A stretch of 64,000 nucleotides of DNA from Candidatus Obscuribacteraceae bacterium (lineage in GTDB: Bacteria > Cyanobacteriota > Vampirovibrionia > Obscuribacterales > Obscuribacteraceae): assembly GCA_044229845.1 (NCBI GenBank), contig JBGASG010000001.1, positions 896,001-960,000 of the forward strand. Reading direction: 5' to 3'. The position numbers and the translations under genes are program-made. Shown here one piece after another: positions 8,548-39,409 of the stretch (position 1 is the first letter of the stretch; every line of letters begins with the position of its first letter). The notes below the pieces were generated by a model that saw only the letters and a program-made list of their open reading frames with translations, did not search any database and was not told where the DNA came from.

Positions 8548-8646
8548 CGGTCTTTCCATACTCCGGCAGACGAGAAATTGTTCACAACCTCGCGTCATTT
8601 TCGCATTTCGTCTTAATATGTGCACGATCAACCCAGGCATACAACT

Positions 8647-9579
8647 ATGTCGTTTTCGAAATTGCGCTTCTACCTGTTGCTGGCAGCACTGCTCGTGTCC
8701 ACCCTCGGACCGGTGCGCGCAGCGTCGGAAAAAACTGAGGCAGCCGCGCCGGCAGCCGCTTCTGTCGATCGCCCGGTCACCGATAAGTGGGCATTGCTGA
8801 TTGGAGTTAGCGAGTTTCCCACAGTCGATTTGCTCGGCGCTCACATCGAGAAAGGTGCGTCCACTACTCCTCGCCTGGTCCTCCCGGCTCGCGCCGACTC
8901 GCTCACATTCAGCGTTAAAGATGCCGTCGACGTGCGCAATTTCCTGATTTACAAAGCCGGGTTTGCCCCCAGCCACGTGAAAGTCTTGTTGAACTCCCAA
9001 GCCACTGGCGAAAAAATTCGTTATTACCTGGGTTCGGGCTGGCTGAAGAATGTTGTTCGCCCGGACGACCTGGTGGTTGTGTATTTCTCCAGCCACGGCA
9101 GCACGTCATTCTCGGACAAGAACGGCGAAAATTACATTCTCACCTACGACTTCGACGATCGAAATCCGAAGAGCACGGGATTGAGCATGCAAGAGCTGGG
9201 TCGCATGATCAAACAATCGCTCCCCTCAGATCGAGTCGTCATCATCGTTGATACCTGTTTTTCCGGCAACGTCAAAACCAGAGACGCCGCAGCGACCACC
9301 GACGTCATCGGTGCCGGACAGATTGCTGTCACCGCCTGCTCTGCCAATGAAACATCTGTAGATGACGATTTTAACGAGAGCGGGCTTTTCACTCACTATC
9401 TTTTGGAAAACCTGTCCAAATACGACGGAAAACTCAAGACTGCTTTTGAAGAAACACGCCAGCAGGTGATTATGGCAGCCAGGCTGCGCATGCACGAACA
9501 GCATCCCACGGTGAACTACAGCCGGTGGAGCGGCAGCGATGCCGTGCTTTTTGCAAAACCTTCAGACCCATCGCCCTAA
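8647..9579 (+). CDS. Secreted caspase-like peptidase (C14)
   Basis: Signal peptide; KWALLIGVS, YFSSHG and IVDTCFSG catalytic His/Cys dyad, GLFTHYLL. Confidence 0.9.
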   Translation: MSFSKLRFYLLLAALLVSTLGPVRAASEKTEAAAPAAASVDRPVTDKWALLIGVSEFPTVDLLGAHIEKGASTTPRLVLPARADSLTFSVKDAVDVRNFLIYKAGFAPSHVKVLLNSQATGEKIRYYLGSGWLKNVVRPDDLVVVYFSSHGSTSFSDKNGENYILTYDFDDRNPKSTGLSMQELGRMIKQSLPSDRVVIIVDTCFSGNVKTRDAAATTDVIGAGQIAVTACSANETSVDDDFNESGLFTHYLLENLSKYDGKLKTAFEETRQQVIMAARLRMHEQHPTVNYSRWSGSDAVLFAKPSDPSP

Positions 9580-9618
9580 GTCAGTCAACGCCATCCAACA
9601 GGATGAAGGAATCGAGCA

Positions 9619-11736
9619 ATGAAACGACATCTGATCTCTCCAGTGGTGGCACTTTGCGTGATGCTGGTGGCGGTACTCGGACCGATTCGTATGGCTGCCG
9701 CAGCTGACGCTCCCCAGCAGCCGGGCAATCAAAACAAGTTTGCCCTTTTGATTGGCATTGATGACTACATCTCCAAACGCCTGGAAAAGCTGGATGGTTG
9801 TGAAAACGATGCGAAGGACATGCGCAAGCTTCTCACGACACGCTTCGGGTTTCCTGATGACGACAAACATATAAAAGTCTTGCTCTCGCGCCAGGCAACC
9901 AGACAAGCCATCGTTGATGCGTTCAAGGCTCAATTGATTGAGAATGCCAAAGCAAATCCGAATGCCATCTGTGTGTTTCATTACAGCGGGCATGGCTCTC
10001 AGGTGCCCGACATGAACGGCGATGAGGAGGACGGTATGGATGAAACTCTCGTGCCGGTAGATTCTCGCCAGCCCGATCACTACGACCTTACCGACGACGA
10101 TCTGGAAGACCTGATCAACCAGCTCGGTCAATATACGAAAAACATCACCATAATCACTGATTGCTGCCACTCCGGCTCCAATGTTCGAGACGCGACCGTG
10201 AGTGTGAGACTGCGCAAGGCCGAGACTGATGACAGACCGCAACCTCCACAAAAACCAAAGGACGCCAAAAGCGCTCCACCGGCTACTTATGTGTCAATGG
10301 CGGGATGCTTGCCCAACGAGACTGCCGGCGAGTCCGACACCGATACTCCGCAGGGTGACCGTGCCAATGGACTTCTGACAAGAAACTTGATTGATGCGCT
10401 TGAGCAGGCAAACGCCGGTACTACATATCGCGACTTGTGGGGAGCGGTGGCAACGGGAGTGACGGGCAACCGTTCCAATCAGCATCCGCAAATCGAAGGC
10501 GACATCGACCGTTTCATATTCGGCGATGCAACCGATCGAGCCGATCCGTACATTCCAGTTTCGGAAGTCACCGACAAGAGCATCACCATTGCCGCCGGTT
10601 CTCTGCAGGGGATCGATCCAGGCACGCTGGTGGCGTTCTATAAAAAGGAAGCAACTCAGCTGCGCGGCAACAAAGATTTGTTGGGTGTCGCCAGCGCCAA
10701 AGATTGCAATGCACTCAGTGCCACCATCGAAAGACCGGCAGGCGTTGATCAGGAAGCGTTGAAGTCGGCCAAAGCCAAAATCGTCACGCCGCACTTCGGC
10801 GCCGGTCCGCTCAATGTGACAGCATTCAATGCCGTTCCTGGAGAAACGAACTCAGCCAGCTGGCAGCAGTTCACCAAGGGCCTGACTGATTCGGTCGACC
10901 CCAAACTGGTCAAAATTGCCAGCAAAACCGCTGATCCGTTTAAAACGCGCGACGCCGGTGGCTGGGACATGTCTGTCGTAAAGGACACATACAACAACTT
11001 CCAGCAGGAGAAAAGTACCGCCGGCACTCGTGACGCCAAAGGCAACGGTTACTTCATTGCCACTAAGGATGGTGCGCCGCTCTTTGATGTCTGGGTGGAT
11101 GAAAACGATCCACACGCTGCCGACACCATAGCCAGCGCTCTGGAAAAGGGAGCTCGACAGCAGCGCGTGTTGGCTCTCGATAATCAAGTCTCGCCTCTCA
11201 AGGGCGCTCTGAAGATCGAAGTGCTGAAAGTTACCCCACTTGGTAAAGACGAATGGGGCGAGCCGACCTTCAAAGAAGATCCCGTTCCAGGAAATCAACT
11301 TGTGCCCACCGTGCACGTGGGGGACAAGTTGCGACTCAAGTTGACCAACACCACGGACGAAAATATCTACATCGCTATTTTGGCAATTGAGACCAGCGGC
11401 AGCATCGCTGTGCTCTATCCGCCGGACAATGCCAAATATCCGCTGCCTCCTAAAGGTACTTTCCGGTGGCCGGCACAGAAGCGCTTGCTTAGCATCAAGC
11501 CGCCCCTGGGAGTGGAGACCCTCAAATTTATCGTCACAACCAAGCCGGCTGATTTCACCATACTCGGACAGTCTGGCGTCAGCCGTGCTGCTCCGTCCGG
11601 TCCCGGTACGGCGCTGGAAGAACTTTTCCGCCGCAGCGTCGGTGGTCACAACACCCGCGATCTGGGCGTCAGCGAGGAAGACAGCAACTCGCTTGACGAG
11701 TGGACCACGACGACTCTCAGGCTTGTCATTAGATAA
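9619..11736 (+). CDS. Secreted metacaspase (C14) with C-terminal DUF4384-like domain
   Basis: Signal peptide; HYSGHGSQ, DETLVPVD, TDCCHSG; C-terminal GDKLRL...YIAIL...LYPP...PPLGVETLKFIVT. Confidence 0.9.
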   Translation: MKRHLISPVVALCVMLVAVLGPIRMAAAADAPQQPGNQNKFALLIGIDDYISKRLEKLDGCENDAKDMRKLLTTRFGFPDDDKHIKVLLSRQATRQAIVDAFKAQLIENAKANPNAICVFHYSGHGSQVPDMNGDEEDGMDETLVPVDSRQPDHYDLTDDDLEDLINQLGQYTKNITIITDCCHSGSNVRDATVSVRLRKAETDDRPQPPQKPKDAKSAPPATYVSMAGCLPNETAGESDTDTPQGDRANGLLTRNLIDALEQANAGTTYRDLWGAVATGVTGNRSNQHPQIEGDIDRFIFGDATDRADPYIPVSEVTDKSITIAAGSLQGIDPGTLVAFYKKEATQLRGNKDLLGVASAKDCNALSATIERPAGVDQEALKSAKAKIVTPHFGAGPLNVTAFNAVPGETNSASWQQFTKGLTDSVDPKLVKIASKTADPFKTRDAGGWDMSVVKDTYNNFQQEKSTAGTRDAKGNGYFIATKDGAPLFDVWVDENDPHAADTIASALEKGARQQRVLALDNQVSPLKGALKIEVLKVTPLGKDEWGEPTFKEDPVPGNQLVPTVHVGDKLRLKLTNTTDENIYIAILAIETSGSIAVLYPPDNAKYPLPPKGTFRWPAQKRLLSIKPPLGVETLKFIVTTKPADFTILGQSGVSRAAPSGPGTALEELFRRSVGGHNTRDLGVSEEDSNSLDEWTTTTLRLVIR

Positions 11737-11852
11737 AGCCAAGGAATTTTTTGTAGAAACATATGGGCAAATCGTTATCTGCCGACGATAATCTGTTCTG
11801 GCCCGCCATAAGGGAAGTAGCCTTCCCTGAGTTATAGGAATTGGAGGACAGA

Positions 11853-12197
11853 ATGGAAAAATTGAACAAGACCGATTTGACGGTATTGCTCGCAGCGATC
11901 AGCGTCAGCTCTGGTGTTCTGGTCAGCTCAGGTCAACCGGCAGTAGCAGCCAAATCGACCGGAATGGCAATCGCTGAAAAGGGAACCAACCTGGCCGACA
12001 CCGATAAGAAAGACGACACCAAGAAAGAAGAAGCCAAGCCTGCCGGCAAGAAAAAAGGTCCTGGCAAAAACAGAGGCGGCGGTTGCACATATCCGTGCGG
12101 ATGCCACTACGGCAACGCCAAGAAGCATGGCAAGACCGACAAAGCCGGCGAATCCAAACCGGCCGAAGATGCCAAAAAGGAAGCTGAAACCAAGTAG
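11853..12197 (+). CDS. Putative RiPP precursor: signal peptide, Lys/Asp-rich spacers, Cys-rich core GGGCTYPCGCHYG
   Basis: GGAGG RBS at ~11843; 114 aa; first gene of an operon containing DUF692/DUF2063, the layout of secreted MNIO precursor clusters. Confidence 0.75.
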   Translation: MEKLNKTDLTVLLAAISVSSGVLVSSGQPAVAAKSTGMAIAEKGTNLADTDKKDDTKKEEAKPAGKKKGPGKNRGGGCTYPCGCHYGNAKKHGKTDKAGESKPAEDAKKEAETK

Positions 12198-12212
12198 TCA
12201 GCCTCAGGTTCA

Positions 12213-13649
12213 ATGAGAAAATTTAGCCCTGCGTCCGTGCTAGCAACGTTGTGTCTGGTTGGTAGTTTATTTGCCAGCCAGCTCAAGTTGCCCGCAATGG
12301 GCGCAGGGTTTGATTCTCTAGTAGGCACCGCACTACCTGTCCAACACAATGGTGAACGAGCGGGAGCCCAGCAAGCGGCCCCAGCAGCGCCAGCGGCACA
12401 ACCAGCAGAAGGGCCGCTGAGCACCGTCGAAATCACTATCGGTCCTTTCGACCTGGCCAAAAAATATCGATCCATGGAAGGTCCGTATGTGCGCGAGCCG
12501 CTGCGCATCGCCGACCTGATTGCGTCGAAACAGATCCAAATTCCTGAAGCCCTTGTACAATTCGTCGAAGGTTGTTCAAAACCGGCACCTTCAATGTCCG
12601 GCAGTGCCAAAGGCGCGAAGTCCGATGTACCGGATGCTGGTGTGATCGGGCTCAACACAGCGCGCACAAAAGGCAGAGAGTTGCTCTGGCTGAAGTCGGT
12701 CAAGCTGGAAGTCCTGGACGAAAACGATCAGGTCTTACCCACGGACGAATTTTTCTGCCACTCGACCATTGATGTCGATCTGGATTTCCGCAGCCATGTG
12801 TTTCCTGAAAGTGAACAGCCAGGGAGCATGCGCCACATAGTTCTTTCGCAGGGGCAGACCGAGTTTTCCTTCCCGCGCGGATATGGACTGCCGGTTGCCA
12901 GCGACGAAACCTGGAGATTCATTTTTCAGGCAATCAATAGAGATAGCGACAAACACCGGCGAGTCAAGCAACGCTGTGTACTTTCATTCGTTCGCGATTC
13001 GGAATTGGTTTATCCGATCAAAGCTCTGTTCTGGTACTACCCGGTGATCAATGTGGTGATCGATCGCAATTCGCCGGAGGCGGCACAAGAAGAACACAAC
13101 ATGTGCCCGGACTGTTCGTTGATGTCTGATGGCGTGCCGGCTCCGAGCAGCATGCGCAGCATGATCTTCAATGATGAGCTGGGGCGCAAACAAATCGGCC
13201 ACTGGGTGGTGCCACCCGGTACTCACACTTACACAAGTCCCGTCAGCACCATCACATCCCCTGCTAATGCCGATTTCTCCGCGGTAAACAGACGTGTTCA
13301 TCTGGTCATGGCTCACGTGCATCCTTATTGTGAAAAATTTGCTCTGGTAGAGTGCAACGGTAAAGCACGCAAGGACGTGATCGTGGTCAAGGCGCGAACG
13401 CAGGAAAAGCCGCTGCAGATTTTGCACATCGACACGCTGAGTTCCAGCGAAGGTATTCCTCTGATAGCGGGCAAGCATTACGAGCTGGAAGCGACTTACG
13501 TCAATCCGACGGCGCAGCCGCAAGACTCGATGGCCGGCATGGCAATTTATTGCGCCGACACAAAATTTGTGCGACCTGACTGGTCGTACGCCGGTGACTC
13601 CAATCCCGCTGATTGTGGACTTCCCGTTAGCAAGCGCAAGGCGAAATAA
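12213..13649 (+). CDS. Secreted protein, putative copper type II (PHM/DBH-like) monooxygenase
   Basis: Signal peptide; FFCH, then FPRGYGLPV, AHVHPY and terminal YVNPT...DSMAGM, resembling the PHM CuM site (HxH...M); CPDC motif. Confidence 0.55.
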   Translation: MRKFSPASVLATLCLVGSLFASQLKLPAMGAGFDSLVGTALPVQHNGERAGAQQAAPAAPAAQPAEGPLSTVEITIGPFDLAKKYRSMEGPYVREPLRIADLIASKQIQIPEALVQFVEGCSKPAPSMSGSAKGAKSDVPDAGVIGLNTARTKGRELLWLKSVKLEVLDENDQVLPTDEFFCHSTIDVDLDFRSHVFPESEQPGSMRHIVLSQGQTEFSFPRGYGLPVASDETWRFIFQAINRDSDKHRRVKQRCVLSFVRDSELVYPIKALFWYYPVINVVIDRNSPEAAQEEHNMCPDCSLMSDGVPAPSSMRSMIFNDELGRKQIGHWVVPPGTHTYTSPVSTITSPANADFSAVNRRVHLVMAHVHPYCEKFALVECNGKARKDVIVVKARTQEKPLQILHIDTLSSSEGIPLIAGKHYELEATYVNPTAQPQDSMAGMAIYCADTKFVRPDWSYAGDSNPADCGLPVSKRKAK

Positions 13650-14557
13650 TGACGTCTAAGTTTCTCGATGTGAAAAAGCAATTGCCGATACTGGGTGTCG
13701 GCCTGGGGCTGCGCAACGAAGTGGAAGACGAAACCTTCGAGCACGCCGACCAGATCGACTGGCTGGAAATAATCTCCGAGCAATTCATGGGACTGGGCGG
13801 AAAATCGCGAGCCCGCTTGGACAGGGCTTTAAATGTATTCCCTCTAATCGCGCACGGGGTCGGACTGTCTCTCGGGAGCACCGACGAAATAGACCAGGAC
13901 TACATCCGGTCTTTGAAGAAACTCCTGAAGCATATCGATGCTCCTTGGTGGAGCGATCATCTTTGTTTCAGTGCCTTTGGCGGTGTGCAAACCCACGAGT
14001 TGCTGCCGCTGCCGTTCTCACGCGAGGCAGTTGCGCATTGCGTAACACGCGCGAAGAAAGTCCAGGAGATGACGGACATTCCGTTTCTTCTCGAAAACAT
14101 CACGTACTACATGCGCATGCCCGGCAGTGAGCTGGATGAAGCTCAGTTTCTTTCTGAAGTGTTGGAGCAAGCCGATTGCGGGCTTCTGCTCGATATCAAC
14201 AATGTGTATGTCAATTCGCTCAATCACAAATTCGATCCTTTCGAATTTATGGATCAGATTCCGCTTGAGCGCACCGTACAAATTCACATAGCCGGTCACC
14301 ACCATGCTCCCGAATTCGATGCCTATGTGGATACGCATGGTGCCACACCTCCAAGACCGGTTCTGGATCTGCTTAAGTATGTGATGGAACGGGTTCCAGT
14401 CAACGCGATTCTCCTCGAGCGCGATCAGCATTTTCCCGATGAGTTTTCTGAGTTACTGGCAGAGCTGGACGATATTCGAGCTGTAGTCAAAGCAGCACAA
14501 CCAGGCTGGCTCGACAGCAAGTCTCAGGCGAAGACGTCGCACCAGGTGCGCGGATAA
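13649..14557 (+). CDS. DUF692 multinuclear non-heme iron oxidase (MNIO)
   Basis: GVGLGLR, WLEIISE, HGVGLSLGS, WSDHL, LLENI, LLLDINN, QIHIAGH, DTH, LERD. Confidence 0.95.
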   Translation: MTSKFLDVKKQLPILGVGLGLRNEVEDETFEHADQIDWLEIISEQFMGLGGKSRARLDRALNVFPLIAHGVGLSLGSTDEIDQDYIRSLKKLLKHIDAPWWSDHLCFSAFGGVQTHELLPLPFSREAVAHCVTRAKKVQEMTDIPFLLENITYYMRMPGSELDEAQFLSEVLEQADCGLLLDINNVYVNSLNHKFDPFEFMDQIPLERTVQIHIAGHHHAPEFDAYVDTHGATPPRPVLDLLKYVMERVPVNAILLERDQHFPDEFSELLAELDDIRAVVKAAQPGWLDSKSQAKTSHQVRG

Positions 14558-14561
14558 GACT

Positions 14562-15404
14562 ATGCCTGGTAGCACGCTCTCCGAAGTCGAAAAGGCAATG
14601 ACCAAGTTGTGGACGAATCGCGACGCATTGGAGCGATTTCTGGCAGGCGACTTCTCAGACATTGGTCCCGAGATCGCCGCTCAAATCGATAAAGAGCGGC
14701 TGATGATCTACGTTCAAGTTTTGCAAGTCAAACACTACGAAACGATGAGCATGACTTTTCCTCTGACGGAAAAACTGTTAGGAGAAGACTGGGACGAGAT
14801 CGTTGAAGACTATCGCAACATCTGCCCGCCGACCAGCTACAGGTCCAGTCGCGCCGGCGAACACTTCAAGACATTCATCGAAAAACATTTGAACGAGCAG
14901 GTGAAGGAAAAGTTTCCTTACTTGACGGACCTTGTCGATTACGAGTTTTCCGAAAGCGACATGATTGATTTCGATGATACGGAATTCGATTATCAATCCG
15001 ATACGTGCCTGCTGCAATCGGCTGAGGAATTCGCGGGATTCAAACCTCTGGTCAACCCGGCTCTGCTTATTCGGCGGTATCACTTCGATCTCATCGCCAT
15101 CGCCGAAAAGCTGGAAGAAGAGTCGGATGAGTTGCCGGCAGACGTGAAGGCGGAGCCGAGTATTGTCCTTGTTTATCGAGATCCTGAGGACAAAGAGATT
15201 CGATTCTTGTCCGTGGGACATGTGGCGGCGGCGATCATTGAGAAAGCTCAGGAAGGAAACAGCTCCTACGGCGATCTCGCAGGACTTGCGGTCGCGCTCA
15301 ATCCGGATCAAGATCCGCAAACGACATTGGCCGATTTTATGGGACTAGTAGAGTCCCTGCAGGGCAAGCACGTTTTTATTGGACATCGCAGAATTTCCGG
15401 CTAA
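14562..15404 (+). CDS. DUF2063/HvfC-like MNIO partner protein
   Basis: Directly follows DUF692; RLMIY...FPLTEKLLG...PYLTDLVDYE...NPALLIRRYHF pattern. Confidence 0.85.
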   Translation: MPGSTLSEVEKAMTKLWTNRDALERFLAGDFSDIGPEIAAQIDKERLMIYVQVLQVKHYETMSMTFPLTEKLLGEDWDEIVEDYRNICPPTSYRSSRAGEHFKTFIEKHLNEQVKEKFPYLTDLVDYEFSESDMIDFDDTEFDYQSDTCLLQSAEEFAGFKPLVNPALLIRRYHFDLIAIAEKLEEESDELPADVKAEPSIVLVYRDPEDKEIRFLSVGHVAAAIIEKAQEGNSSYGDLAGLAVALNPDQDPQTTLADFMGLVESLQGKHVFIGHRRISG

Positions 15405-18400
15405 CTACCAGCCCACGCCGTCGTAGACCCAACCCGCCCAGTAGTAGGGATGCTTCCACTTGCCACCGGGGGTTGACTTCACCGACTCTTGCGCCGCCTT
15501 CAATGCGTCGACTGGTTTCATCGGTTTCGTGGGATTCCACAGATTTTGATAGAACGCCTTCATCAATTCTTTTGTGGCCTTGTCATCGACAGACCAGAGT
15601 GACATCAAGACTCCTCGCGTTCCGGCACCGATTAATGCGGCGCGCAGTCCCATCACTCCCTGCCCTTCGTAGTCTTTGCCGCGACCGGTGTTGCAGGCGG
15701 ACAAGACAACGAGATTGCAGTGGCTCAAGTCCTGGCCAACCAACTCCTCAGCGGTAAGCCGATCGTTGTTGCTGCCCGCGATGATGTTCAGGTAGTTGGA
15801 TTTGAATTGGCCACCGCCCAATTTTTGTGCGTCCGGTATTGGTGCCACCAGAAGACCGGACAAGACAAGTGGATTGCGCGAGGCGGCTGCAGCTCTCGTG
15901 TCGATGCCGCCCTGATCTTTGCCGGAGAACCTCACTGTGTCGCCAGGCAATGTCACCAGGGGCACCGTTTTGTCTCGGTCGTCTGCCGGATCGAAGAATC
16001 CGTGCGTGGCAAGGTGTGCATAAGTGGAACTGCTCAAGTGTTTGAGCACCTCATCCTTGGTCGGCTGAAGACCAGTCAACTTCGACACATGAAGCTTCAT
16101 TGGCTCTGCAAGCGCGGCGATTTCGTTGGCTTCGGATTCTGTACCCGGAAGGAAAAGTGCCTTTTGCGCAAACTCGATGCCGCCGATCACAAAGAGATCT
16201 TTTGCTTGAGGAGCTTTATAAGGTGCCCGCAATTGCAGCAGGGCGCGCGGACTGTCGATTTGACAGGTGCGTATGCGGCCGCCTTCGTTGTTATCTATGA
16301 GAACAGACCAGGGCAGGGTCGCAAGTTTTGAGTCGGGGCAAATCCACACTTTTGGAGCGCTTGCCGGGATTGCTGCTTTGATGGGCAACCAAAGTTTCTT
16401 GCCGACGGCATTTGCCAGCTCAGTGCAATTGACGCGGGGTGCATTGGCAGCGTTTGGCGAGTTTGGTTTCTCGTCGTCGTCGGTAATGGAGACATCGCGG
16501 GCGGTGCCAGAGTTCGAAGCCATGGCGTGAAGCCAATCGGTTGACACCTTATCTATGTCGTCGGCATCACCCAGTCGAAATCCCTTGACACCACCTGACT
16601 TAGAAACTGCAAACACGAAGTATGCCGACTTGTTGGTGAGCATATCTTTGTAGCGGAGCATGTCTACTACGACTTCATCGCTGCTCAATGAGCTGGCGAA
16701 CTCGCGAGCTGTTTTGGTGAGCGTTGGATCGATCTCGCCGGTCGCAGTATTTTTGAGGGCGAGTTTGCGTTCGAGCATTTCTTTAATTTCTGTCCGGGTC
16801 TGAATGCCGATCAGATCGGATTGTTGACCGGCACCACCGGCGGAGAGTTTTGAAAGCTCTTGCCTGATGTTTCTGAGGGCGGCGACGGTGTTCGGGTCGC
16901 CGCTGCGTTCCAGGTTGGCCTGTTGTCTGACAGCGTTGATCAAAAGACCCTGCCAGCGCATAACATATTCAAATCGCTTGTCGGCTGACTCAGTTGCCGA
17001 GCCGTATGATAGGAGCGCGTTGATCTGATCGCCTACGCACTTGATAAACGCGCACTGACCTGCAAATGAGAGCTTCGGAAACCCGGACTTTACAAACTCG
17101 TCCAGCTTCTCGCAGGCGGCCAAAACATTTTTATTCGCAACTGCTTGGGCACCAAGTTTGCTGTTAGCGAATGCAATGCCATTGTAGTCCGCCACCAGCC
17201 CAAGAACACCAGCGCTCGACGTGTCTTTGAGATGCAGTTTCAATGCCTGGTTATACTCGGTGTCCGCAAGTTTGTAGTCTTGCTTGGAAAGGGCAAGCCC
17301 GGCAAGCAGCAAGTGCGCCTTTGCTAGTTCGGACTGATCAGTGTAGTTGGGTTGGATGATGCTGGAGAGAATGGTCACCGCTTTTTGCGCGACCGATGCC
17401 GCCTCAGCGGCGTTGTTCGACAAGCTGAGAACTTGTGCTAGTTCCAGTTGATGACTAGCTACCTGACTGTTGCTCAATCGCAGGTTCGATTTCCCACACA
17501 GCTGCCGCGCATAGTTTTCTGCTGCTGCCAGATCGCCTTTGGATCGGGCGACCGACGTGAGGATCTCCAGGCAATTCATGCCGAGCATGTTGTCCTGATA
17601 ATAGGTCGGCCCCCAAAGTTTCTTGCAGAGATCTTCTGCTTCTCTGGCTCTCGACCAAGCTACATCATAGTCACCTTCCAGGCGACACACTCTGGCTCGG
17701 GCAATCAGTGTTCGCACTCTGTTGTCTTGCGGCTGGTTGTGGTTTGCGTACCAAATTTGAGACGCCGCGAAGGTAGCTTCAGCCTTTGCATAGTCTCCGA
17801 GATTTTCAAACAACAGTCCCAATCCGTACTTTTCGCGACCGTTAACAGGCGATACGGATAAGTCACCGTTGGGAGCAAGAGCGCTGAAATTGGCAAGAGC
17901 CAGATTTGCCAGTTCTACCCCCTTCTGCCGCGTTCTCTCATCGCCGGACAAGAGGTAAGCCAGGCGCACCAACGATGCTTGAACGGCTGGTGTCTTGAGG
18001 CGAGCATCTTTTGCATCGCTCAACTTCTTCCAGATTGCATACCCTTCCAGCGCGGGCGGAACATAGTCACCACCCAGCGCCGCCAGTCGATGTGCGATCA
18101 AAAACTTTTCCTGAGCGACGGACGGGCTATCGTTGCCTTCCAGCTTCTGTCTGATCTGCATCGCCTGAACAATGATTGGAATCACCGGCTGCGTCTTGTT
18201 TTTGAAGTATGGATACGCAATTGCAACATCGTCCAGAAACTGGGCGTACTGGACCGAGTTCGGATCCATTTTTGAGCCGTTGTCGGACATTACTTTGCTG
18301 AGATCGGGTGCGATACCAAAAGCTTTTTCGTGAGTTTCGCGTGCGGCGGCGTTCTGAGCTTCTAAAGCAATGTCGATGAAAATGTTTTTGCGAATTAGTG

Positions 18401-18647
18401 CATCGTTGTCTCTGTACTGATTGTAGAGGGGCTCCGCCTCTGTCGGGCGACCCTCCGCGACAAGTATGCCAGCCAAGTCTCGATTGGCTTTCGCCAGCTG
18501 CGCCTCAGGAGCCTTATTTTTAGTGAGCTGCTCAATTTGCGCACGGGCAGCCTTTTCGGCGTCCTGCAGTTTCTTGTTGGTTTCCTGGGCATCCACCTGG
18601 CAGGCACAGGAAAGTGCCGCCGCTACGAGAAGTACCAGTCTCTTCAT
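15405..18647 (-). CDS. Secreted TPR + CHAT-domain protease
   Basis: Signal peptide; HLATHGFF, LVVLSACNTG, SLWSVDD, HPYYWAGW. Confidence 0.92.
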   Translation of the reverse strand: MKRLVLLVAAALSCACQVDAQETNKKLQDAEKAARAQIEQLTKNKAPEAQLAKANRDLAGILVAEGRPTEAEPLYNQYRDNDALIRKNIFIDIALEAQNAAARETHEKAFGIAPDLSKVMSDNGSKMDPNSVQYAQFLDDVAIAYPYFKNKTQPVIPIIVQAMQIRQKLEGNDSPSVAQEKFLIAHRLAALGGDYVPPALEGYAIWKKLSDAKDARLKTPAVQASLVRLAYLLSGDERTRQKGVELANLALANFSALAPNGDLSVSPVNGREKYGLGLLFENLGDYAKAEATFAASQIWYANHNQPQDNRVRTLIARARVCRLEGDYDVAWSRAREAEDLCKKLWGPTYYQDNMLGMNCLEILTSVARSKGDLAAAENYARQLCGKSNLRLSNSQVASHQLELAQVLSLSNNAAEAASVAQKAVTILSSIIQPNYTDQSELAKAHLLLAGLALSKQDYKLADTEYNQALKLHLKDTSSAGVLGLVADYNGIAFANSKLGAQAVANKNVLAACEKLDEFVKSGFPKLSFAGQCAFIKCVGDQINALLSYGSATESADKRFEYVMRWQGLLINAVRQQANLERSGDPNTVAALRNIRQELSKLSAGGAGQQSDLIGIQTRTEIKEMLERKLALKNTATGEIDPTLTKTAREFASSLSSDEVVVDMLRYKDMLTNKSAYFVFAVSKSGGVKGFRLGDADDIDKVSTDWLHAMASNSGTARDVSITDDDEKPNSPNAANAPRVNCTELANAVGKKLWLPIKAAIPASAPKVWICPDSKLATLPWSVLIDNNEGGRIRTCQIDSPRALLQLRAPYKAPQAKDLFVIGGIEFAQKALFLPGTESEANEIAALAEPMKLHVSKLTGLQPTKDEVLKHLSSSTYAHLATHGFFDPADDRDKTVPLVTLPGDTVRFSGKDQGGIDTRAAAASRNPLVLSGLLVAPIPDAQKLGGGQFKSNYLNIIAGSNNDRLTAEELVGQDLSHCNLVVLSACNTGRGKDYEGQGVMGLRAALIGAGTRGVLMSLWSVDDKATKELMKAFYQNLWNPTKPMKPVDALKAAQESVKSTPGGKWKHPYYWAGWVYDGVGW

Positions 18648-18695
18648 ATCTCGCTGTTCCTCCACACTGCCAAAGACCAAGCGCTGTCAAGAAAC

Positions 18696-21600
18696 TTACC
18701 AACCCACTCCGTCGAAGACCCAGCCTGCCCAGTAATAGGGATGCTTCCATTTGCCACCAGGAGCCGACCTGACGGTGTTCTGAGCGGCTCTCAACGCGGC
18801 TACGGGTTGCATCGGATTGGTTGGGTTCCAAAGATTCTGGTAGAAGTTCTTCATCAACTCTTTGGTTGCGCGATCATCAACCGGCCAGAGAGACATCAGC
18901 ACTCCGCGTGCACCGGCTCCGATCAGTGCGGCGCGCAGCCCCATCACACCCTGCCCTTCGTAATCTTTGCCGCGACCGGTGTTGCATGCGGATAGAACAA
19001 CCAGGTTACAGTGGCTGAGATCTTGGCCGACCAGTTCTTCGGCCGTCAGTCGGTCGTTGGCGTTCACATTGGCGCCCTGGGCTGGTGCTACGAGCAAGCC
19101 TGACATTACGAGCGGGTTTCGTGCGGATATCACAGCCGTGGTGTTGAGTCCGCCCTCTCCTGTGGAAACTGTCGCGAAGCTTCTCTGCGACGCCAACAAC
19201 TGATCTGCGACAGTTTGTGCATGTTGCTGACTGATTGTTTTTTCGTCACCTTGATCGAAAAAGCCGTGAGTAGCAAGGTGCGCATAAGTTGCCGTCCCGA
19301 GTTGTCTCAAAACTTCGTTCTTTGTCGGCTCAGCACCGGTCAGTTTCGACAGATGCAGTTTCATCGGCTCGGCAAGTTTCGAAATGTCGGCGACTTCAGA
19401 TTCGGTGCCGGGAAGAAACAGAGATTGTTGAGCGAACCGAATACCGCCAACCAACAGGAGATCTTGCGCGACCGGAGTCTGGTGTGGCGCTTTGAGCTGC
19501 CACCAAGCCCTGGGGCTATCGATTTGGCTAGTCAGTACCTGTCCGTTTTCCACTGAATCCACCATGGTGGACCACGGCAAAGTGGCTAGCTGGGAATCCG
19601 GGCAAATCCACACTCGGCGTATGCCGGGAGGCAGTGCAGCTTTTATCGGCGTCCACAGTTTTTGTGTGACGGTGCCGGTAGCGGCATCCAGGTCGATCTG
19701 AGTTTTGGCAGGCTCAGCTGATTTGGGATCTTCATCCAAGATCGACACGTCACGGGTGCTGCCGGAATTGGATGCCATTGCCTGCAGCCACTGGGCGGAC
19801 AGCTTTTCGATGTCATCCGCATCTCCCAGACGGAATCCTTTGACACCGGCTTTCTTCGAAACTACGAAAGCGTAATATGCAGGTTTGTTAGCGAGCAAAT
19901 CTTTATAGCGCAGTACGTCCACCAGAGCTTCGTCGTTTGCCAGTGAATTGACAAAGTCACGTGGAGTCAGCGTTAGCATCGGATCGGTGGTGGCAGTGGT
20001 GACCGTGGTGCTGAGAGCGAGTTTACGCTCCAATGCCTCCTTCGCTTCGGTCTTGGTTTGAATCGCAGCCGCAGTAGATGCAGCTTGATTATTCATGCCG
20101 CCGCCCGATGAAAGTTGCGACAACTCTTGTCTGATTTGTCGCAGTTGCGCGACAGTCTGCGGATCACCGCTGCGCTCGATACTGGTCTGTCGCCTCACCG
20201 CATCTATGAGTAGACCTTGCCAGCGCATCACATATTTGAATGGTTCAGCAGCAGTATCGCCAGTAGTGCCGAGCGAAAGCAGCGGATTGATCTCATCGCG
20301 TACACATTTGATAAACGCGCATTGTTCAGCAAAGGAAAGTTCTGGAAACCCGGTTTTGATGTAGGTGTCCAGTTTGTCGCAGGCGAGCAGCGCATTTTCA
20401 ATGGCGGCTTGTTTCTTGCCGAGCTTGCTGCCGGTGAAAGCTATGCCATTCAAGTCTGCCACCAATCCCAATACTCCGTCGGTGGACTTATCGGTGCCGT
20501 GTAGAATAAATGCCTGTCTGTACTCTGCATCGGCGAGCTTATAATCTTGCTTCGCCAGCGCCAGACCACCCAATAGAAGGTGCGCCTTAGCCAACTCGAT
20601 CTCATCGTATGAGGTCTTCTCTCTCAGGTTCGAGAGAATTGAGACTGCGTCCTGAGCATATCTGGTGGCTTCGCTTTTGTCGTTGCCCATGCTCAACACC
20701 TGAGCTAGCGCCAGATAGTGGCGTGCCATATCACTGTTTTGCTGCAGCCATTTGGTTTTCAGTGTCAGCATACGCGCGTAAAGTTCGGCCGCTTCCAGAT
20801 CTCCTCTGGCTCTGGCGATCGCCGTCAGTGTCTCCAGGCACATCATCCCGGCGACGTTTTCCTGATAGTGGGTAACTCCCCAATTCTTTTGACAGATCGC
20901 TTCAGCGGCTTTTGCTTTTTGCCAAGCAACATCGTAGTCGCGTTCGAGATAACAAATTCGTGCATCAGCAATGGCGGTGCGCGCCGTGCCTGTGGGATCG
21001 TTGTGAGCCTGAAACCAGAGGTTCGCTTTTTCATAAGCGGTACGTGCCTGCCCGAATTCTCCTAGATTCTCGTACAGGAGTCCGAATCCGCCCCATTCGC
21101 GGCCGGCATTCGGCGAATCCGGAGCAAGGTTTGCGCGGGCTAAAGTTGCCATTTCCAACGCTTGCGATTTGGTCTCGGCATTTCCGGCAAGCAGGTACGC
21201 AAGCCGCAGGATGGAAGGCTGAAATGACTTGAGACGCACATCGTGTCTGTCGCGCAATTTTACCCAAATCTTGTATGCGTCCAGAGCGGGAGCTGTGTAA
21301 TCACCTCCGAGATTGGCGAGACGCACGGCGATTTGGAATTTGTCGTCGGCAATTCTTGGCGTATCGGGACCTTCAACACGCAGCCTGATCTGAATGGCTT
21401 CTTCAAGCAAGGGAATCAGGGGCTGTCGTTTGATGCGAAAGTTTGGATAGGCAAAGCCAACGGATTCCAAAAAATCAGCGTACGCCAGAGAACGTGAATT
21501 AACACCGCCATTAGGATCAAGTCGGGCTTTGGTGTCTGCGATGGTTTTAGCGAGATCGACGGCGTTGCCGCCAAACTTGCTTTTATAGACGCTGGTGGCC

Positions 21601-22649
21601 ATTGCGCTCTGGGTTTCTATGACCACATCAATAAAAACGTTCTTTCGCACCTGTCTTTTGTTGGCTATGCTCACGTAAGCCTGGTTGTAATAAGGTTCTG
21701 CCTCTCCGAGACGTCCCAACTCGACCAGTGCCCGGCCCAGTTCCTTAAGTGGATCTTCCAGTTCGGAGGCGGTGGCTTTGGACTTGATCAGCAAATCCAA
21801 CTGAGTGCGGTATGCCTTTTCCGCCGCCTGCAGGTTTCCTTTCCTTCTATTGAGCTTTCCGAGGTCGCCATACAGATAGGCACAAGTCGTACTTGACGCC
21901 AGGTTATTCTTCGTCAAAATGTCGATGGCTTTTGTGTAGCTGGCTTCCGCCTGTGTGTAGTCACTACGCATGTAATAACAGTCGCCCAGATACTCGACGG
22001 CAGTCGCCAGCGAGTCGGGGTCGTTCAATGAATTGCGGTGTTCTCTTAGTGCGATTACTTGCTTGTAGACCTTCTCTGCTCGGTCGTATTGGCGCCGATA
22101 CTTGTATATGTCCGCCAGGCAGGAGAGGGGATAAGCAGCTTCCACACTATTGGGACCCCAGATGGCTAGAGCCCGTTCTAGAAGCGGCTCTGCCTCGGTA
22201 TCGCGAAATTGTCCAGAGAACAGCGAGCCTAGCTGTGCGAAAGCGCCGGCTTGAAGGTCCACCAATGCCGATTCGATCTGCTTCGGCGTAAGTCCCCGAT
22301 CGCGCAGAGTCTTTGTTCTAGGAGGCTTTAACTCAGCGATCTTGACGGCCCGTTCTGCATTCTTTTGTGCATCGGTCAACAAATTGTCCGAATTGTAAGC
22401 CCGGCTCAATGCTACTAAAACAGGAATCAATTCGACTGTTTCTGGGTCTTTTGCTTCTATTTGCTTAATCAGTGCCAGCAGTTTGGTTTGCGCGCCTTTG
22501 TAATTGCCCGAATCCTGGTCTGCCATCGCTGCAGCGAACGCATCCTGCGAAGAAGACCCTGCAGAAGCTGTTTCTCCAGCGGATGAAATCGGCATCGTGC
22601 TTGCCAATAGCAGCATCGCGCAGCAAAGGGTGACTAGAAATCTCGGCAT
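18696..22649 (-). CDS. Secreted TPR + CHAT-domain protease (paralog with extra N-terminal TPRs)
   Basis: Same CHAT motifs (HLATHGFF, LSACNTG, HPYYWAGW); many TPRs; signal peptide. Confidence 0.92.
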   Translation of the reverse strand: MPRFLVTLCCAMLLLASTMPISSAGETASAGSSSQDAFAAAMADQDSGNYKGAQTKLLALIKQIEAKDPETVELIPVLVALSRAYNSDNLLTDAQKNAERAVKIAELKPPRTKTLRDRGLTPKQIESALVDLQAGAFAQLGSLFSGQFRDTEAEPLLERALAIWGPNSVEAAYPLSCLADIYKYRRQYDRAEKVYKQVIALREHRNSLNDPDSLATAVEYLGDCYYMRSDYTQAEASYTKAIDILTKNNLASSTTCAYLYGDLGKLNRRKGNLQAAEKAYRTQLDLLIKSKATASELEDPLKELGRALVELGRLGEAEPYYNQAYVSIANKRQVRKNVFIDVVIETQSAMATSVYKSKFGGNAVDLAKTIADTKARLDPNGGVNSRSLAYADFLESVGFAYPNFRIKRQPLIPLLEEAIQIRLRVEGPDTPRIADDKFQIAVRLANLGGDYTAPALDAYKIWVKLRDRHDVRLKSFQPSILRLAYLLAGNAETKSQALEMATLARANLAPDSPNAGREWGGFGLLYENLGEFGQARTAYEKANLWFQAHNDPTGTARTAIADARICYLERDYDVAWQKAKAAEAICQKNWGVTHYQENVAGMMCLETLTAIARARGDLEAAELYARMLTLKTKWLQQNSDMARHYLALAQVLSMGNDKSEATRYAQDAVSILSNLREKTSYDEIELAKAHLLLGGLALAKQDYKLADAEYRQAFILHGTDKSTDGVLGLVADLNGIAFTGSKLGKKQAAIENALLACDKLDTYIKTGFPELSFAEQCAFIKCVRDEINPLLSLGTTGDTAAEPFKYVMRWQGLLIDAVRRQTSIERSGDPQTVAQLRQIRQELSQLSSGGGMNNQAASTAAAIQTKTEAKEALERKLALSTTVTTATTDPMLTLTPRDFVNSLANDEALVDVLRYKDLLANKPAYYAFVVSKKAGVKGFRLGDADDIEKLSAQWLQAMASNSGSTRDVSILDEDPKSAEPAKTQIDLDAATGTVTQKLWTPIKAALPPGIRRVWICPDSQLATLPWSTMVDSVENGQVLTSQIDSPRAWWQLKAPHQTPVAQDLLLVGGIRFAQQSLFLPGTESEVADISKLAEPMKLHLSKLTGAEPTKNEVLRQLGTATYAHLATHGFFDQGDEKTISQQHAQTVADQLLASQRSFATVSTGEGGLNTTAVISARNPLVMSGLLVAPAQGANVNANDRLTAEELVGQDLSHCNLVVLSACNTGRGKDYEGQGVMGLRAALIGAGARGVLMSLWPVDDRATKELMKNFYQNLWNPTNPMQPVAALRAAQNTVRSAPGGKWKHPYYWAGWVFDGVGW

Positions 22650-22888: not shown

Positions 22889-25800
22889 GTGGCGGTCGCC
22901 AGCATGTTGAATCGGGTCTCAGCGCTAAGAATACTCGTTGCAATCGTGATTGCCGTGTCCCTCGGCGGGTGTAGCAGCCTGGTCGAGAAAGTTAAATCGC
23001 TCAGCCCCTTCGGCAAATCTAAAGTCCAGCGCAATGACCTTCGCCTGATTATCGATCGTGGGCACGACGGCGACATCATGGCCATCAAGTTCAATCCGTC
23101 TGGAAAATTGCTCGCCAGCGGCAGCGACGACCGGACTGTAAAAATCTGGGATGTGCCAAACCAGTGCGAACTGCGTACTATCGAGACGGGCTTCAAAGTA
23201 ATCGCGATTGCCTTCAGCCATGATGGCACGCTGATCGCAGCCGGCAGCTACGAGAACAAAGAAAAGAATCACTGTCCCATACAAGTGTGGAATGCCTTGA
23301 CCGGCGAGAAGGTCATGGAATTCTTCACTGACGATACCGGAGTTAACGATCTGGCATTTACTCCGGATGACAAATCATTGGCTGTCACATGTACGCGTGG
23401 CAAAGACAAGCAAAAAGACGGCGCTGCGGTGCGTTTCTGGAACATAAAGACCGGCAAGTGCACGGAGACTTTCTACGGACCGGAGGAGCACTCTTGCAAC
23501 AGTCTTTGTTTTAGTCCAGATGGTGAAAATCTGGTAGGCACTACATCTGGTGGACTCATCACCGTATGGAACGTGTCTGATCAGAAGAAGTTGAAAAGTT
23601 TTGACTGCGACTTTGAAGATGCTACCCGCGCTGTAGTGACCTATAGCCCCGACGGGAAGACGCTTGGACTGCTTAATGCCACCAAAGTGGTTCTCATAAA
23701 CATTGAAGACGGGACGAAAAAATCCGTGACGCTGCCAGGAAAAGTGGATCAGCCGAGCATTGCCTTCAGCCCGAACGGAAAAGCCGTCATTGCCACCACC
23801 AAAGACATGATTTACATGTTGAGCACGGACGACTTGCACGAGATTCTCAGAAAGGACAGAGAAACGAAAGCTGTTGCGTTTGCGCCTAATGGTCGGTGCT
23901 TTGCCACCAGTCGCGCAGACCATATCTCAGTCTACGATTCGGGAGACGCCGAGAGATGGTATTCATTGGGTCTTGACGGACCGCCGATGTCTATGGCGGA
24001 TTTCTCGTTCAGTCCTGATGGCAAGAGCATCGTCACTTGCGAAGCAAACGCGAAACTCTGGGATCTTACGGGCAAGCGTAACGTCCGCATGTTCGACTAT
24101 CAGGAAGCCGCCATCAGTCCGGATGGCTCTTTGATTGCGGTCGGCGGATATGTTTTCATGCACGGCTATACCAATACTGTTGAGATCAGAAACACGCAGA
24201 CTGGCGGCATCCTTCGCACGATTAAAACGGCAGGACCAGTGCAGCAGCTCTGTTTCTCCAGTGACGGCAAACATATCTTCAGCATCGATGAAGAGGAGAG
24301 GAATCGGAAAGGCGACTACGGAGCCTCCATGGTTCAGAGCTTTGATGTGGCGACCGGAAAGGAGACTTTGCGAGTCGCTTACAAGGATAAGGAGTACGAT
24401 ACGCCCTGGGAGATGGATTCGAAGACTGACACAGCTGCCTGCCCCAGGAAAGCCGGCATCGATATAATCGACATGCGCACGGGCAAGACGAAATCCAGTG
24501 TCAAGTCGACGGGCGACATCAACATGGACCTCTCCGAGGGTGCTAAGTTTCTTTCGGTGGTACAGGTGCATGACCTTTGTGTTCATGATCTCGAGCACGG
24601 CAACCGCGTGATCATGAAATTGACCGAGCCGAAAGATTACATCAGGACCGTCGGCTCCCTGGCGATTTCGCCGGACGGCAAGACGCTGGTGACTTCCAGT
24701 CGCAGTGAGAATGCCACCCGTGTCTGGAGTGTCCCGGACGGCAAGCTTCTCGACACGCTTGACGGAACAGCCGGCATAGTCAGGTTCAGTCCGGACGGTT
24801 CGCTGCTCGGAAGCGCCGAAAATCGCATGTTGGTGCTCAGGAAGACGGACGATTGGACCGAGCTTGCCAAAATAGTGCCTCTCGCTCACAGCGAATGGGT
24901 GGTTCTGGATCCTGAAGGAAGATTCGATTCATCCAAGAGAGGGCGAATGGTTATTCACTTCGCCAAAGGCACCGCTTTCCTGTCGCTCGACCAGCTGTGG
25001 AGTCAGTATTATCAACCCAACTTGTTGTCCAGGTTGGTAGGCTTCAACTCCGAGCCACTGCGGGCTGCTCCTGCCATGACTGATATCGGACTGGCGCCCG
25101 AAGTGGAGTTGGAACCGCCGGCGAAAGGGTCTGGTGTGCTGAACATCAAGATCAAGAAACGCGACGGCGGCTTAGGCAAAGTGGTTGTTCGCGTCAACGG
25201 CAAGGAGTTGCCGGCGCAGGCGCAGCCACGCGCTTTGGATCTGGGAGGGACTGACGTTAAGGTGCGGGCAGACCTGATGCAGGCTGCATCCGCGGAGTAT
25301 GGCAAGACAAATAAGGTGAGCGTCGTTGTCTACAACGCCGACGGCACCATGACCAGTCGCGATTGCCAGGTCTCGTGGGCGGCACCGGAGACGGAGGCTG
25401 AGCCAGCTCATGCGAAGCCGGAACTCTATGCCATCATATGTGGTACTTCCAAGTACAAGAACTCGCGGCTGAATTTGACGTTTCCTGCAAAAGACGCGAC
25501 GGATTTCAGCAAGTCTCTGGAGATTGGTGCGCCTTCGCTCTTCGGTACCGAGAAGGTGCATATCATCCTGCTGACGACGGATAGCGAGTCAGATGAGACA
25601 CCGACCAAGGCTCACCTCGAAGCCGCTTTTGCCGCGGCCAAAAAATCGCGGCCGGACGATGTGTTTGTCGTGTACATGGCTGGTCATGGCGTTACCGTCA
25701 AGGAACCGGCTGACACGTACTACTACCTGCTCACAGATGCGGAGAGCGCAGATTTATCTAATAAGAAACTGCGAGACGCCAGCACCGTTTCCAGCGAGGA

Positions 25801-26602
25801 ACTGGCTGACTGGATCACGAGAATTCCTGCGAAACACCAGGTAATGATCTTCGATACGTGTGGTGCAGGAGGATTGATCAAGAAACTGGCGCAACGTCGA
25901 GATTTCTCCACTGATGGTATTCGTGCCATCGAGCTGTTGAACAGACGAGCGGGGACTCACGTGTTGCTTGGATGCGCCGCCGATGCGGTGAGTTATGAAT
26001 CGAGTCAGTATTCGCAGGGATTGCTTACTTATGCCCTGCTGGAAGGGATGCGCACCACGAAGGGGCTGCATAAGGATTCGGAAGGTTATGAGCAAGATGT
26101 TCTGACGTTGTTTAACTACGCGCGCAATCGCGTGCCCGAGTTAGCTCAATCAATAGGCGGCATCCAGGAACCACGGGTGGTGGCAGACCCGGAAGGCAGC
26201 TTCGCCATCGGGTTGTTGAAGCCGGAGGACACGGGCAAGATACCTCTGGCTAAAGCGAAACATCGATTAACACCACCGCGCCTTGTGGACGCCGATCAGG
26301 TCGATGATACGCTCGACTTAAGTAATCGACTGGGCATTAAGTTGAGTGACCTCGCTACTCCGACGAAGAGCAGATCGACGGAGCCGTATGTCTACATCAC
26401 CGACGCGGATCTTGCCGACGCAATCAGGGTGTTCGGTAAATATAAGGTTTCTGGAAATAAGGTGACCGTTACGGTCAACATGCTTCGCAATCACGAGCAG
26501 TTAGAGAAGTTCTCGGTCGAGGGAACCAAGGACGATCTGCCCAAACTGGTCGGAGCGCTTTCCGACAAGATACGCGCCACACTGCGCAAGGTCGCTACGT
26601 GA
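22889..26602 (+). CDS. WD40-repeat + caspase-like (C14) lipoprotein
   Basis: LGGC lipobox; GH...SGSDDRTVKIWD repeats; YMAGHG and FDTCGAG dyad; GLLTYALL. Confidence 0.9.
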   Translation: MAVASMLNRVSALRILVAIVIAVSLGGCSSLVEKVKSLSPFGKSKVQRNDLRLIIDRGHDGDIMAIKFNPSGKLLASGSDDRTVKIWDVPNQCELRTIETGFKVIAIAFSHDGTLIAAGSYENKEKNHCPIQVWNALTGEKVMEFFTDDTGVNDLAFTPDDKSLAVTCTRGKDKQKDGAAVRFWNIKTGKCTETFYGPEEHSCNSLCFSPDGENLVGTTSGGLITVWNVSDQKKLKSFDCDFEDATRAVVTYSPDGKTLGLLNATKVVLINIEDGTKKSVTLPGKVDQPSIAFSPNGKAVIATTKDMIYMLSTDDLHEILRKDRETKAVAFAPNGRCFATSRADHISVYDSGDAERWYSLGLDGPPMSMADFSFSPDGKSIVTCEANAKLWDLTGKRNVRMFDYQEAAISPDGSLIAVGGYVFMHGYTNTVEIRNTQTGGILRTIKTAGPVQQLCFSSDGKHIFSIDEEERNRKGDYGASMVQSFDVATGKETLRVAYKDKEYDTPWEMDSKTDTAACPRKAGIDIIDMRTGKTKSSVKSTGDINMDLSEGAKFLSVVQVHDLCVHDLEHGNRVIMKLTEPKDYIRTVGSLAISPDGKTLVTSSRSENATRVWSVPDGKLLDTLDGTAGIVRFSPDGSLLGSAENRMLVLRKTDDWTELAKIVPLAHSEWVVLDPEGRFDSSKRGRMVIHFAKGTAFLSLDQLWSQYYQPNLLSRLVGFNSEPLRAAPAMTDIGLAPEVELEPPAKGSGVLNIKIKKRDGGLGKVVVRVNGKELPAQAQPRALDLGGTDVKVRADLMQAASAEYGKTNKVSVVVYNADGTMTSRDCQVSWAAPETEAEPAHAKPELYAIICGTSKYKNSRLNLTFPAKDATDFSKSLEIGAPSLFGTEKVHIILLTTDSESDETPTKAHLEAAFAAAKKSRPDDVFVVYMAGHGVTVKEPADTYYYLLTDAESADLSNKKLRDASTVSSEELADWITRIPAKHQVMIFDTCGAGGLIKKLAQRRDFSTDGIRAIELLNRRAGTHVLLGCAADAVSYESSQYSQGLLTYALLEGMRTTKGLHKDSEGYEQDVLTLFNYARNRVPELAQSIGGIQEPRVVADPEGSFAIGLLKPEDTGKIPLAKAKHRLTPPRLVDADQVDDTLDLSNRLGIKLSDLATPTKSRSTEPYVYITDADLADAIRVFGKYKVSGNKVTVTVNMLRNHEQLEKFSVEGTKDDLPKLVGALSDKIRATLRKVAT

Positions 26603-28233: not shown

Positions 28234-28438
28234 GAGTACCTCATCTCGATCTAAGAGGAGAGTGCTTTGGCAATAGTGAGCGCGCTCTGGCTGACCCTAC
28301 ATGTGGTGGCACGCACACGTGGACACCTTTTGCCTAATCGAATCCAGCGGTTTGAGAGTTGTAGAGCATGTATACCAAGGGTTTACAAGACAGCCTATAT
28401 CTAAACCTAGCAGTCTGAAACATGCTAGAATGTCAACC

Positions 28439-37612: not shown

Positions 37613-37614
37613 CA

Positions 37615-39222: not shown

Positions 39223-39409
39223 ATCAACCTCAAAGATTCGTTCGGTCGGCAGGAGAAACGGACCTGGTTCCAATCCCAATGTATTCCAAACCGCTGGGCT
39301 TCTGTAGGGTGATCGCACCGCAAAATATTCAGGGTTTTCCCCGGCGGAATTCGATTTGCACTATCCGTCGGGCTTTGGTAGGCTTCCCAGCCAGGACCAA
39401 GAGGCATAA

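Follow-up and report, generated by a model that had tools for sequence, protein, structure and literature searches.

Captophorins, which include the bufferins, the oxazolin of the hvf system and fontiphorin, are produced by clusters that combine a BufB/HvfB-type enzyme of the MNIO (DUF692) family, a PME1 partner protein carrying DUF2063 and RRE domains, and a cysteine-containing precursor whose Sec signal is predicted and whose tails are charged and of low complexity (PMC11626156, PMC13097082); all characterized MNIO-PME1 pairs install 5-thiooxazoles (PMC13097082). The type II copper monooxygenases PHM and DBH are secreted proteins of two domains, with a HxH...M motif at the copper site CuM. 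A four-gene cluster in a 64,000-nucleotide stretch of an Obscuribacteraceae genome (positions 896,001 to 960,000 of contig JBGASG010000001.1, the window) has the enzyme, the partner and the kind of precursor of the former and, within the same unit, a gene for a protein (P0002) with the predicted fold, the CuM motif and the predicted secretion of the latter. We consider the cluster, at a probability of about 0.45, to be a variant of the captophorins (5-thiooxazole copper peptides) that has a PHM-fold partner of its own, predicted to be exported, by which the Tyr-Pro core of the precursor is likely hydroxylated. The initial annotation of this DNA had seen a new MNIO-dependent metal-binding peptide system: a PHM-fold gene within such a unit and the core itself do appear to be new; the base system, MNIO with PME1 as in captophorins, was already known.

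The precursor and its core

The precursor contains exactly three cysteines (78, 82 and 84), all of them within RGGGCTYPCGCHYG, which is flanked by tails rich in K, G, A, E and D. The initial annotation had described a signal-peptide protein with cysteines in a single core; the single core and its charged tails are as described, and the signal is predicted from hydropathy and motif only (a hydrophobic 11-mer with a value of 2.33, a helix at residues 6-18, and an A-x-A motif). Except for this helix, the structural model of the precursor is disordered (pLDDT 51). Its N-terminus resembles those of oxazolin-like precursors found beside MNIOs across the bacterial family, and it thus looks like a family-type precursor that carries a new core.

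A profile search returned nine matches, of which eight further precursor clusters were kept and the ninth, an unrelated Cys-poor protein (E 0.65), was dropped. The core follows the consensus C-x(0,1)-Y-P-C-G-C-H-Y-G, with C78 and Y80-G87 invariant in 9/9 precursors, one of which lacks the residue between the core C and Y; in a 5-row alignment, 10 of the 11 core columns are invariant, as opposed to 8/43 and 5/27 in the tails. Conservation of the core among homologs, which had been named beforehand as a test, is thus observed. This invariance across relatives, together with a reversed control pattern that finds 0 matches in the 107 genomes of the order, places the core above chance. The core pattern also has 0 matches in viral contigs, and the precursor profile, run against 401 genomes of the phylum, recovers the genome of origin and a single weak match (E 6e-4) that does not cover the core. 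The precursor has no Pfam or NCBIfam match, and the motifs of the described precursor classes (DUF2282, Lys-Cys/EGKCG, Cys-Lys, CxxxxC) are absent from its sequence; the initial annotation, too, had matched the core to no MNIO precursor.

Coupling of the precursor, the PHM-fold protein and the MNIO

The core pattern is present in four of the order's 107 genomes, G000 and G069 of one genus and G077 and G079 of another; it is thus narrowly distributed, as judged from assembled genomes only. Full-length relatives of P0002 with an identity of at least 60% are confined to these four genomes; the next relative stands at 51%. As a background, a relative of P0002 is found in 27 of the 107 genomes, and an MNIO in 100 of 104 genomes of the family; bare co-occurrence with an MNIO therefore means little, and the coincidence of the core with the close relatives is the sharper test. 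The gene order is precursor-PHM-MNIO-PME1 in G000 and G069, and precursor-(MNIO~PME1 fusion)-PHM in G077 and G079, with MNIO and PME1 fused into one protein; the link between precursor, PHM-fold protein and MNIO has thus outlasted rearrangement. Synteny of the PHM-fold gene with this MNIO clade, the other test named beforehand, accordingly holds in a second genus. In 150 loci around P0002 relatives, an MNIO or partner gene is present in six, which correspond to the four core genomes, two of them seen twice.

A further genome, G076, retains a 40-residue remnant of the subclade gene (L237, G076:C159:46052-46177, minus strand), adjoining a gene like the one that neighbors it in G079; precursor and MNIO are absent from the 12 kb examined there, which fits a joint loss. 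Database records bear on the coupling indirectly: six of the eight other precursor clusters can be paired, tentatively, with a record of a subclade protein, with locus tags two genes apart in three of the pairs, and two of these clusters correspond to the G077 and G079 precursors. No matching record exists for P0284 (on a 544-bp contig) and P0285, and no matching precursor record for P0006, P0012 and P0015. Separately, G064 carries an MNIO and, some 7 kb away, a PHM-like gene that was not counted, as it lies on the opposite strand, is 43% identical and comes without the core. The kin genomes show one origin followed by long retention, rather than repeated independent pairing. The four genes very likely form one functional unit.

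The MNIO and its PME1 partner

The MNIO matches PF05114 with 307 bits (cut-off 25) and its partner matches PF09836 with 37.1 (cut-off 27.2) and PF22106 with 31.9 (cut-off 27), so that the gene pair proposed initially, DUF692 with DUF2063, stands. Among NCBIfam models, those for BufB (270.8 bits, cut-off 310) and HvfB (260.8 bits, cut-off 360) score best, both below their cut-offs, and the ChrH model reaches 61 bits (cut-off 600). The catalytic Asp is present and the metal ligands are intact: H69, H104, D182, N185, H213, D228, H230 and E257 are kept, as they are in 70/70 other rows of the alignment, as is D259 (69/70), and E149 is present. In a tree of 71 MNIOs (73 sequences less two exact duplicates, representing part of the family's MNIOs, with 125 further matches left out), the linked MNIOs form one clade with support 97/96. 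This clade is set apart by a 2-residue insertion right before the iron ligands D228 and H230, absent in 70/70 other rows, and by N, S or A in place of the second Arg, which is R in 40/70 rows and which in FonB pairs with a substrate Glu (PMC13097082). The contexts of the core cysteines, G-C-T, P-C-G and G-C-H, likewise differ from the preference of FonBC, which fits a specialized clade. The MNIO very probably modifies the precursor core.

Other MNIO genes occur in the same genome set. G000 carries an ordinary oxazolin-like locus (G000:C12:5265-8816, minus strand) with two tandem precursors (one with SACGKGSCG, one with about 11 S-C-K repeats), an MNIO that is 57% identical to that of the cluster, a DUF2063 partner, and a gene resembling YceI on visual inspection; similar loci are found across the bacterial family. 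Two further MNIO genes lie at G000:C14:67465-69645 (minus strand), behind a membrane protein whose tail is rich in Gly and Cys (by eye, similar to TIGR04222), and at G000:C3:159785-160859 (plus strand), with a short downstream partner. At L194, L199 and L201, signal-less open reading frames with repeated aromatic-x-Cys units (YAC, FKC, YLC) are located just upstream of an MNIO, two of them behind a methyltransferase-like gene, and adjoin long MNIO fusion frames; they are possibly another undescribed class of MNIO substrates.

The PHM-fold protein and its family

P0002 has no Pfam or NCBIfam match, but its structural model (pLDDT 85, built on 63 homologs) supports a two-domain PHM/DBH fold. Foldseek places PHM entries at the top and DBH next; VIA-align yields Z 16.2 both to DBH (root-mean-square deviation 3.7 Å, 256 residues aligned) and to PHM (3.5 Å, 238 residues), with PNGase F folds at 8.4 or below; and an independent scan of 48,161 chains has PHM, PHM and DBH as its top three (Z 13.1, 12.6 and 9.7). 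The CuM-type residues H368 and H370 are kept in 76/76 diverse homologs and M440 in 75/76, their match to PHM H242, H244 and M314 being by motif and domain position rather than by residue-level structural alignment. What the initial annotation called a PHM-like copper monooxygenase thus retains the fold, by structure search, and the CuM site; the canonical CuH ligands are missing, and monooxygenase activity is not established. The protein is predicted to be exported, since its N-terminus is hydrophobic, as in 5/5 subclade members checked.

Other leads on P0002 are slight. In the ESM Atlas it falls into unnamed clusters, in one of which 13% of members carry SURNod19, which is a lead only; a match in the PDB to a stretch of coronavirus nucleocapsid (E 0.17 or worse) is taken as chance. 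Two bacterial PF03712-like proteins (L231:54-947 and L232:1453-2385) show a His-His pair and a third His, but EHSN at the expected CuM Met.

The family of P0002 is large (603 representatives at 50% identity, E 0.001), bacterial, and unannotated in that it is Pfam-negative over the PHM-fold region, with Cys-His replacing His-His. Many members are fused to prolyl isomerases: a cyclophilin domain is found in 62 of 120 homologs among the matches listed, and 39 chosen, mostly long relatives include 21 with cyclophilin, two with ankyrin, and one each with FKBP, redoxin, HTTM and TPR. The cyclophilin may be N- or C-terminal and is sometimes double, and the FKBP case has tandem FKBP domains. These fusions point to Xaa-Pro peptides as substrates, and the core holds an invariant Tyr-Pro. 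The 11 closest homologs carry no Pfam domain (0 of 11, among the matches listed). In a quick tree built from 57 selected rows, the 12 closest PHM-like proteins group together as one clade (support 100), which sits on a long stem and is marked by 22 diagnostic residues that include the gained M206, H208, M314 and M317. A census of 120 loci of the family shows no neighbor common to more than 17 of them, shadow frames aside, and no short Cys-containing frame upstream of the gene except at L031. The family, with its prolyl-isomerase fusions, deserves study by itself.

Layout and surroundings of the locus

The four co-oriented genes and the junctions of the initial annotation are confirmed by the open reading frames and the junction sequences (Table 1): in order, a 15-nt gap, a 1-nt overlap in TAATG and a 4-nt gap. 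A GGAGG lies 5 nt upstream of the precursor ATG at 11853, and an alternative in-frame TTG, 12 nt upstream of it, would extend the precursor by four residues.

Table 1. Features of the cluster and of its flanks, in window coordinates.
Feature	Position	Strand	Basis and remarks
Precursor, 114 aa	11853-12197	+	Open reading frame; predicted Sec signal at about residues 1-33, tails charged and disordered, a single Cys core
PHM/DBH-fold protein (P0002), 478 aa	12213-13649	+	Open reading frame; predicted exported; structure match to PHM/DBH
MNIO (DUF692), BufB/HvfB type, 302 aa	13649-14557	+	Open reading frame; PF05114
PME1 partner (DUF2063 + NGO1945_C/RRE), 280 aa	14562-15404	+	Open reading frame; PF09836, PF22106
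Precursor core, G77-C-T-Y-P-C-G-C-H-Y-G87	12081-12113	+	Conservation among precursors
Probable promoter/transcript start region	11764-11822	+	Sigma-70-like site and RNA contig starts
Caspase-domain gene	8620-11736	+	
CHAT/TPR gene	15405-22649	-	
WD40-caspase gene	22889-26602	+	

A sigma-70-like site at 11764-11792 (one of five such sites found, with 2.3 ± 1.7 expected by chance, and thus weak alone) precedes the place, 11801-11822, at which RNA contigs covering the precursor start in 7/7 RNA runs from six studies, one end being loose; these seven, of 21 runs listed as RNA or possibly RNA, were chosen by this very sequence. The contigs, which show neither strand nor a single transcript, give a weak hint of a transcript start near the site; run X22, of a kind not recorded, bridges this place. 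Two contigs extend from the precursor into the PHM-like gene, while coverage of the three downstream genes is sparse and uninformative on their expression. No operator shared between the upstream regions of G000, G077, G079 and the C12 locus was found.

No sigma, anti-sigma or DoxX gene adjoins the cluster. The initial annotation had found this unusual, which it is not: the fon cluster consists of three genes only (PMC13097082), and DoxX is dispensable (PMC11626156). The caspase-domain gene upstream, the convergent CHAT/TPR gene downstream and the WD40-caspase gene are not kept beside the cluster in G077 and G079, both of which have a response regulator upstream. Elsewhere in the window are an AbiEi antitoxin-family gene (28301-29269, plus strand) and genes for a TonB-dependent receptor and TonB (33403-39318).

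Proposed pathway and alternatives

In the proposed pathway, the cytoplasmic MNIO and its DUF2063 partner would convert at least one core cysteine to a 5-thiooxazole (-4 Da per Cys), after which the peptide would be exported by the predicted Sec route. Given its hydrophobic N-terminus, the PHM-fold protein would not encounter the peptide before export; it would then hydroxylate, with copper and O2, one residue in the Tyr-Pro-Cys core, perhaps Tyr80 or Tyr86 (at the benzylic position, as in DBH) or Pro81, a choice that is a guess only. The product would be an exported copper-binding peptide, with His85 nearby. By analogy with the characterized systems, thiooxazole formation, export and copper binding are likely; that the PHM-fold protein oxidizes the peptide falls a little short of even odds.

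Several observations weigh against this pathway, most of them concerning the PHM-fold protein. Its three-His CuH motif is absent, with C182-H183, invariant in 76/76 homologs, in place of His-His. Q239 falls on the third CuH His in a gap-free alignment to two bacterial PF03712-like proteins, an alignment of only 2% hhalign probability that is used solely for residue register. Candidates for a rebuilt CuH site, judging by conservation, are M88 (kept in 74/76) and H330 (73/76), together with C182, H183 and, in the subclade, H208. Since PHM mutants of the H-site retain about 5% activity or less (PMC12164859), catalysis by P0002 is not to be assumed. The Pfam profiles Cu2_monooxygen and Cu2_monoox_C match 0/63 and 0/76 family members at E 0.1, sequence searches of the PDB from P0002 (phmmer and two profiles) did not find PHM, and there is no conserved gene for an electron donor. 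For the majority of the family, no peptide or MNIO lies in the neighborhood (among 45 loci flanked by 2.5 kb or more on each side, an MNIO or partner is found in two, both of the closest subclade); the function of the family thus needs no such peptide. On the side of the MNIO, FonBC tolerates no Pro near its Cys (PMC13097082), which makes it doubtful which core Cys is modified. Finally, the DNA was examined directly in two genera only, and kin genomes are not independent.

The main rival is a copper hand-off, in which the peptide, once modified by the MNIO, buffers or chaperones copper in the periplasm; the PHM-fold protein, as its copper partner, would load or unload the peptide, or take copper or electrons from it, leaving it covalently unchanged. 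Captophorins bind copper (PMC11626156, PMC13097082), the four Met and His residues gained by the linked subclade alone are of copper-binding types, the CuH motif is incomplete, and the coupled distribution is accounted for equally well. The incomplete CuH, however, is family-wide, even where no peptide is nearby, and the invariant Tyr80, Pro81 and Tyr86, which are not ligands, together with the prolyl-isomerase fusions, fit substrate recognition better; the hand-off is thus somewhat unlikely, if a serious contender. Less probable still is that the PHM-fold gene is a co-regulated passenger, which joined an ordinary captophorin with a new core once and serves other periplasmic substrates. The family is mostly stand-alone, without a broadly common neighbor, and a single ancestral joining, followed by inheritance or block transfer, could yield all four genomes; yet the link has survived both a change of gene order and the fusion of MNIO and PME1, 0/107 genomes have the core without the subclade gene, and the subclade sits on a long stem with changes in the region of the active site.

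PHM Arg240 binds the carboxylate of the substrate, and PHM acts in C-terminal amidation; an analogous route would have a protease cut after Gly87 and the PHM-fold protein hydroxylate this residue, giving a C-terminal Tyr-amide. Gly87 is invariant and ends the core, the nearest fold is that of PHM, and Ac-YVG is a PHM substrate (PMC12164859). This route is nevertheless quite improbable, as the four loci examined have no PAL-like lyase or protease gene in common, the position two residues ahead of the first CuM His holds Met, Leu, Trp or Ala instead of Arg, and the residues following Gly87 vary. A ChrH-type macrocycle between core cysteines, made by the MNIO without thiooxazoles, is hardly credible: the C..P-C-G of the core loosely recalls the ChrH motif CPxCGxG (PMC13056109), but the ChrH score is far below that of BufB, a PME1 partner is present, and the motif is internal rather than C-terminal, with a different Cys spacing.

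The hydroxylation pathway can be sharpened, tentatively, to a peptide that is made by the ribosome and modified after its translation (RiPP) matured in two compartments and by two metals, as the initial annotation had proposed, with thiooxazoles formed by the cytoplasmic MNIO and the Tyr-Pro core then hydroxylated by a periplasmic PHM-fold enzyme with a rebuilt electron-transfer site (Cys, His and Met for three His); the peptide would then be the first named substrate of this large unannotated family, perhaps a class of Xaa-Pro-directed peptide oxygenases in view of its prolyl-isomerase fusions. If hydroxylation after export is true, MNIO peptide chemistry gains a post-export copper monooxygenase step; according to a 2026 paper, no periplasmic modifying enzyme is on record for lipoprotein RiPPs (PMC13056109). 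A bacterial PHM-fold family that keeps CuM without a three-His CuH would have a ready substrate, and would provide a natural test of the debated contribution of CuH in PHM and DBH (PMC12164859).

Comparison with known systems

A literature search of listings and the openings of abstracts, mostly without subscription papers, found no report of an MNIO cluster with a PHM-like gene. In the available part of PMC12452194, 'monooxygenase' occurs once, on methane oxidation, and CxxxC, CxC and Melainabacteria do not occur; its precursor search used the gene immediately before the MNIO, which would miss the order precursor-PHM-MNIO, though not that of G077 and G079. The core and the taxon names are likewise absent from two supplementary files each of PMC12452194 and PMC13097082, where accession-only tables or other files could list these loci.

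Of the minor MNIO precursor families, CxxxxC and adjamnio (PMC12452194) share with the cluster that some have a Sec signal and some an additional gene for a metalloprotein (Lactamase_B_2, present in 54% of the CxxxxC clusters); they differ in Cys spacing and taxa, and the available text mentions no monooxygenase partner. In the ChrH subfamily, to which MelH from a Melainabacteria isolate of the same broad lineage belongs (PMC13056109), an MNIO also acts on a secreted substrate, which carries a motif of the Cys-Pro-Cys-Gly type; but this is another MNIO subfamily, its motif CPxCGxG is C-terminal, and the available text reports neither a PME1 nor a PHM-like gene. From PHM and DBH, P0002 differs in its identity of about 10%, its lack of a Pfam match, the Cys-His...Gln at CuH and the extra conserved Met88 and His330, and further in having no PAL, in being bacterial and in having relatives that are often fused to prolyl isomerases; with a PHM-like fold but without the CuH ligands, it is not classed among the canonical type II monooxygenases. 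From the captophorins, the cluster differs in its single C-x-Y-P-C-G-C-H-Y-G core, where they have EGKCG repeats or DUF2282, in the PHM-fold gene inside the unit and, compared to FonB of fontiphorin, in an MNIO that lacks the second Arg and carries a clade-specific insertion. It works like a captophorin system, with the corresponding enzyme and partner, and has a precursor that fits no described class.

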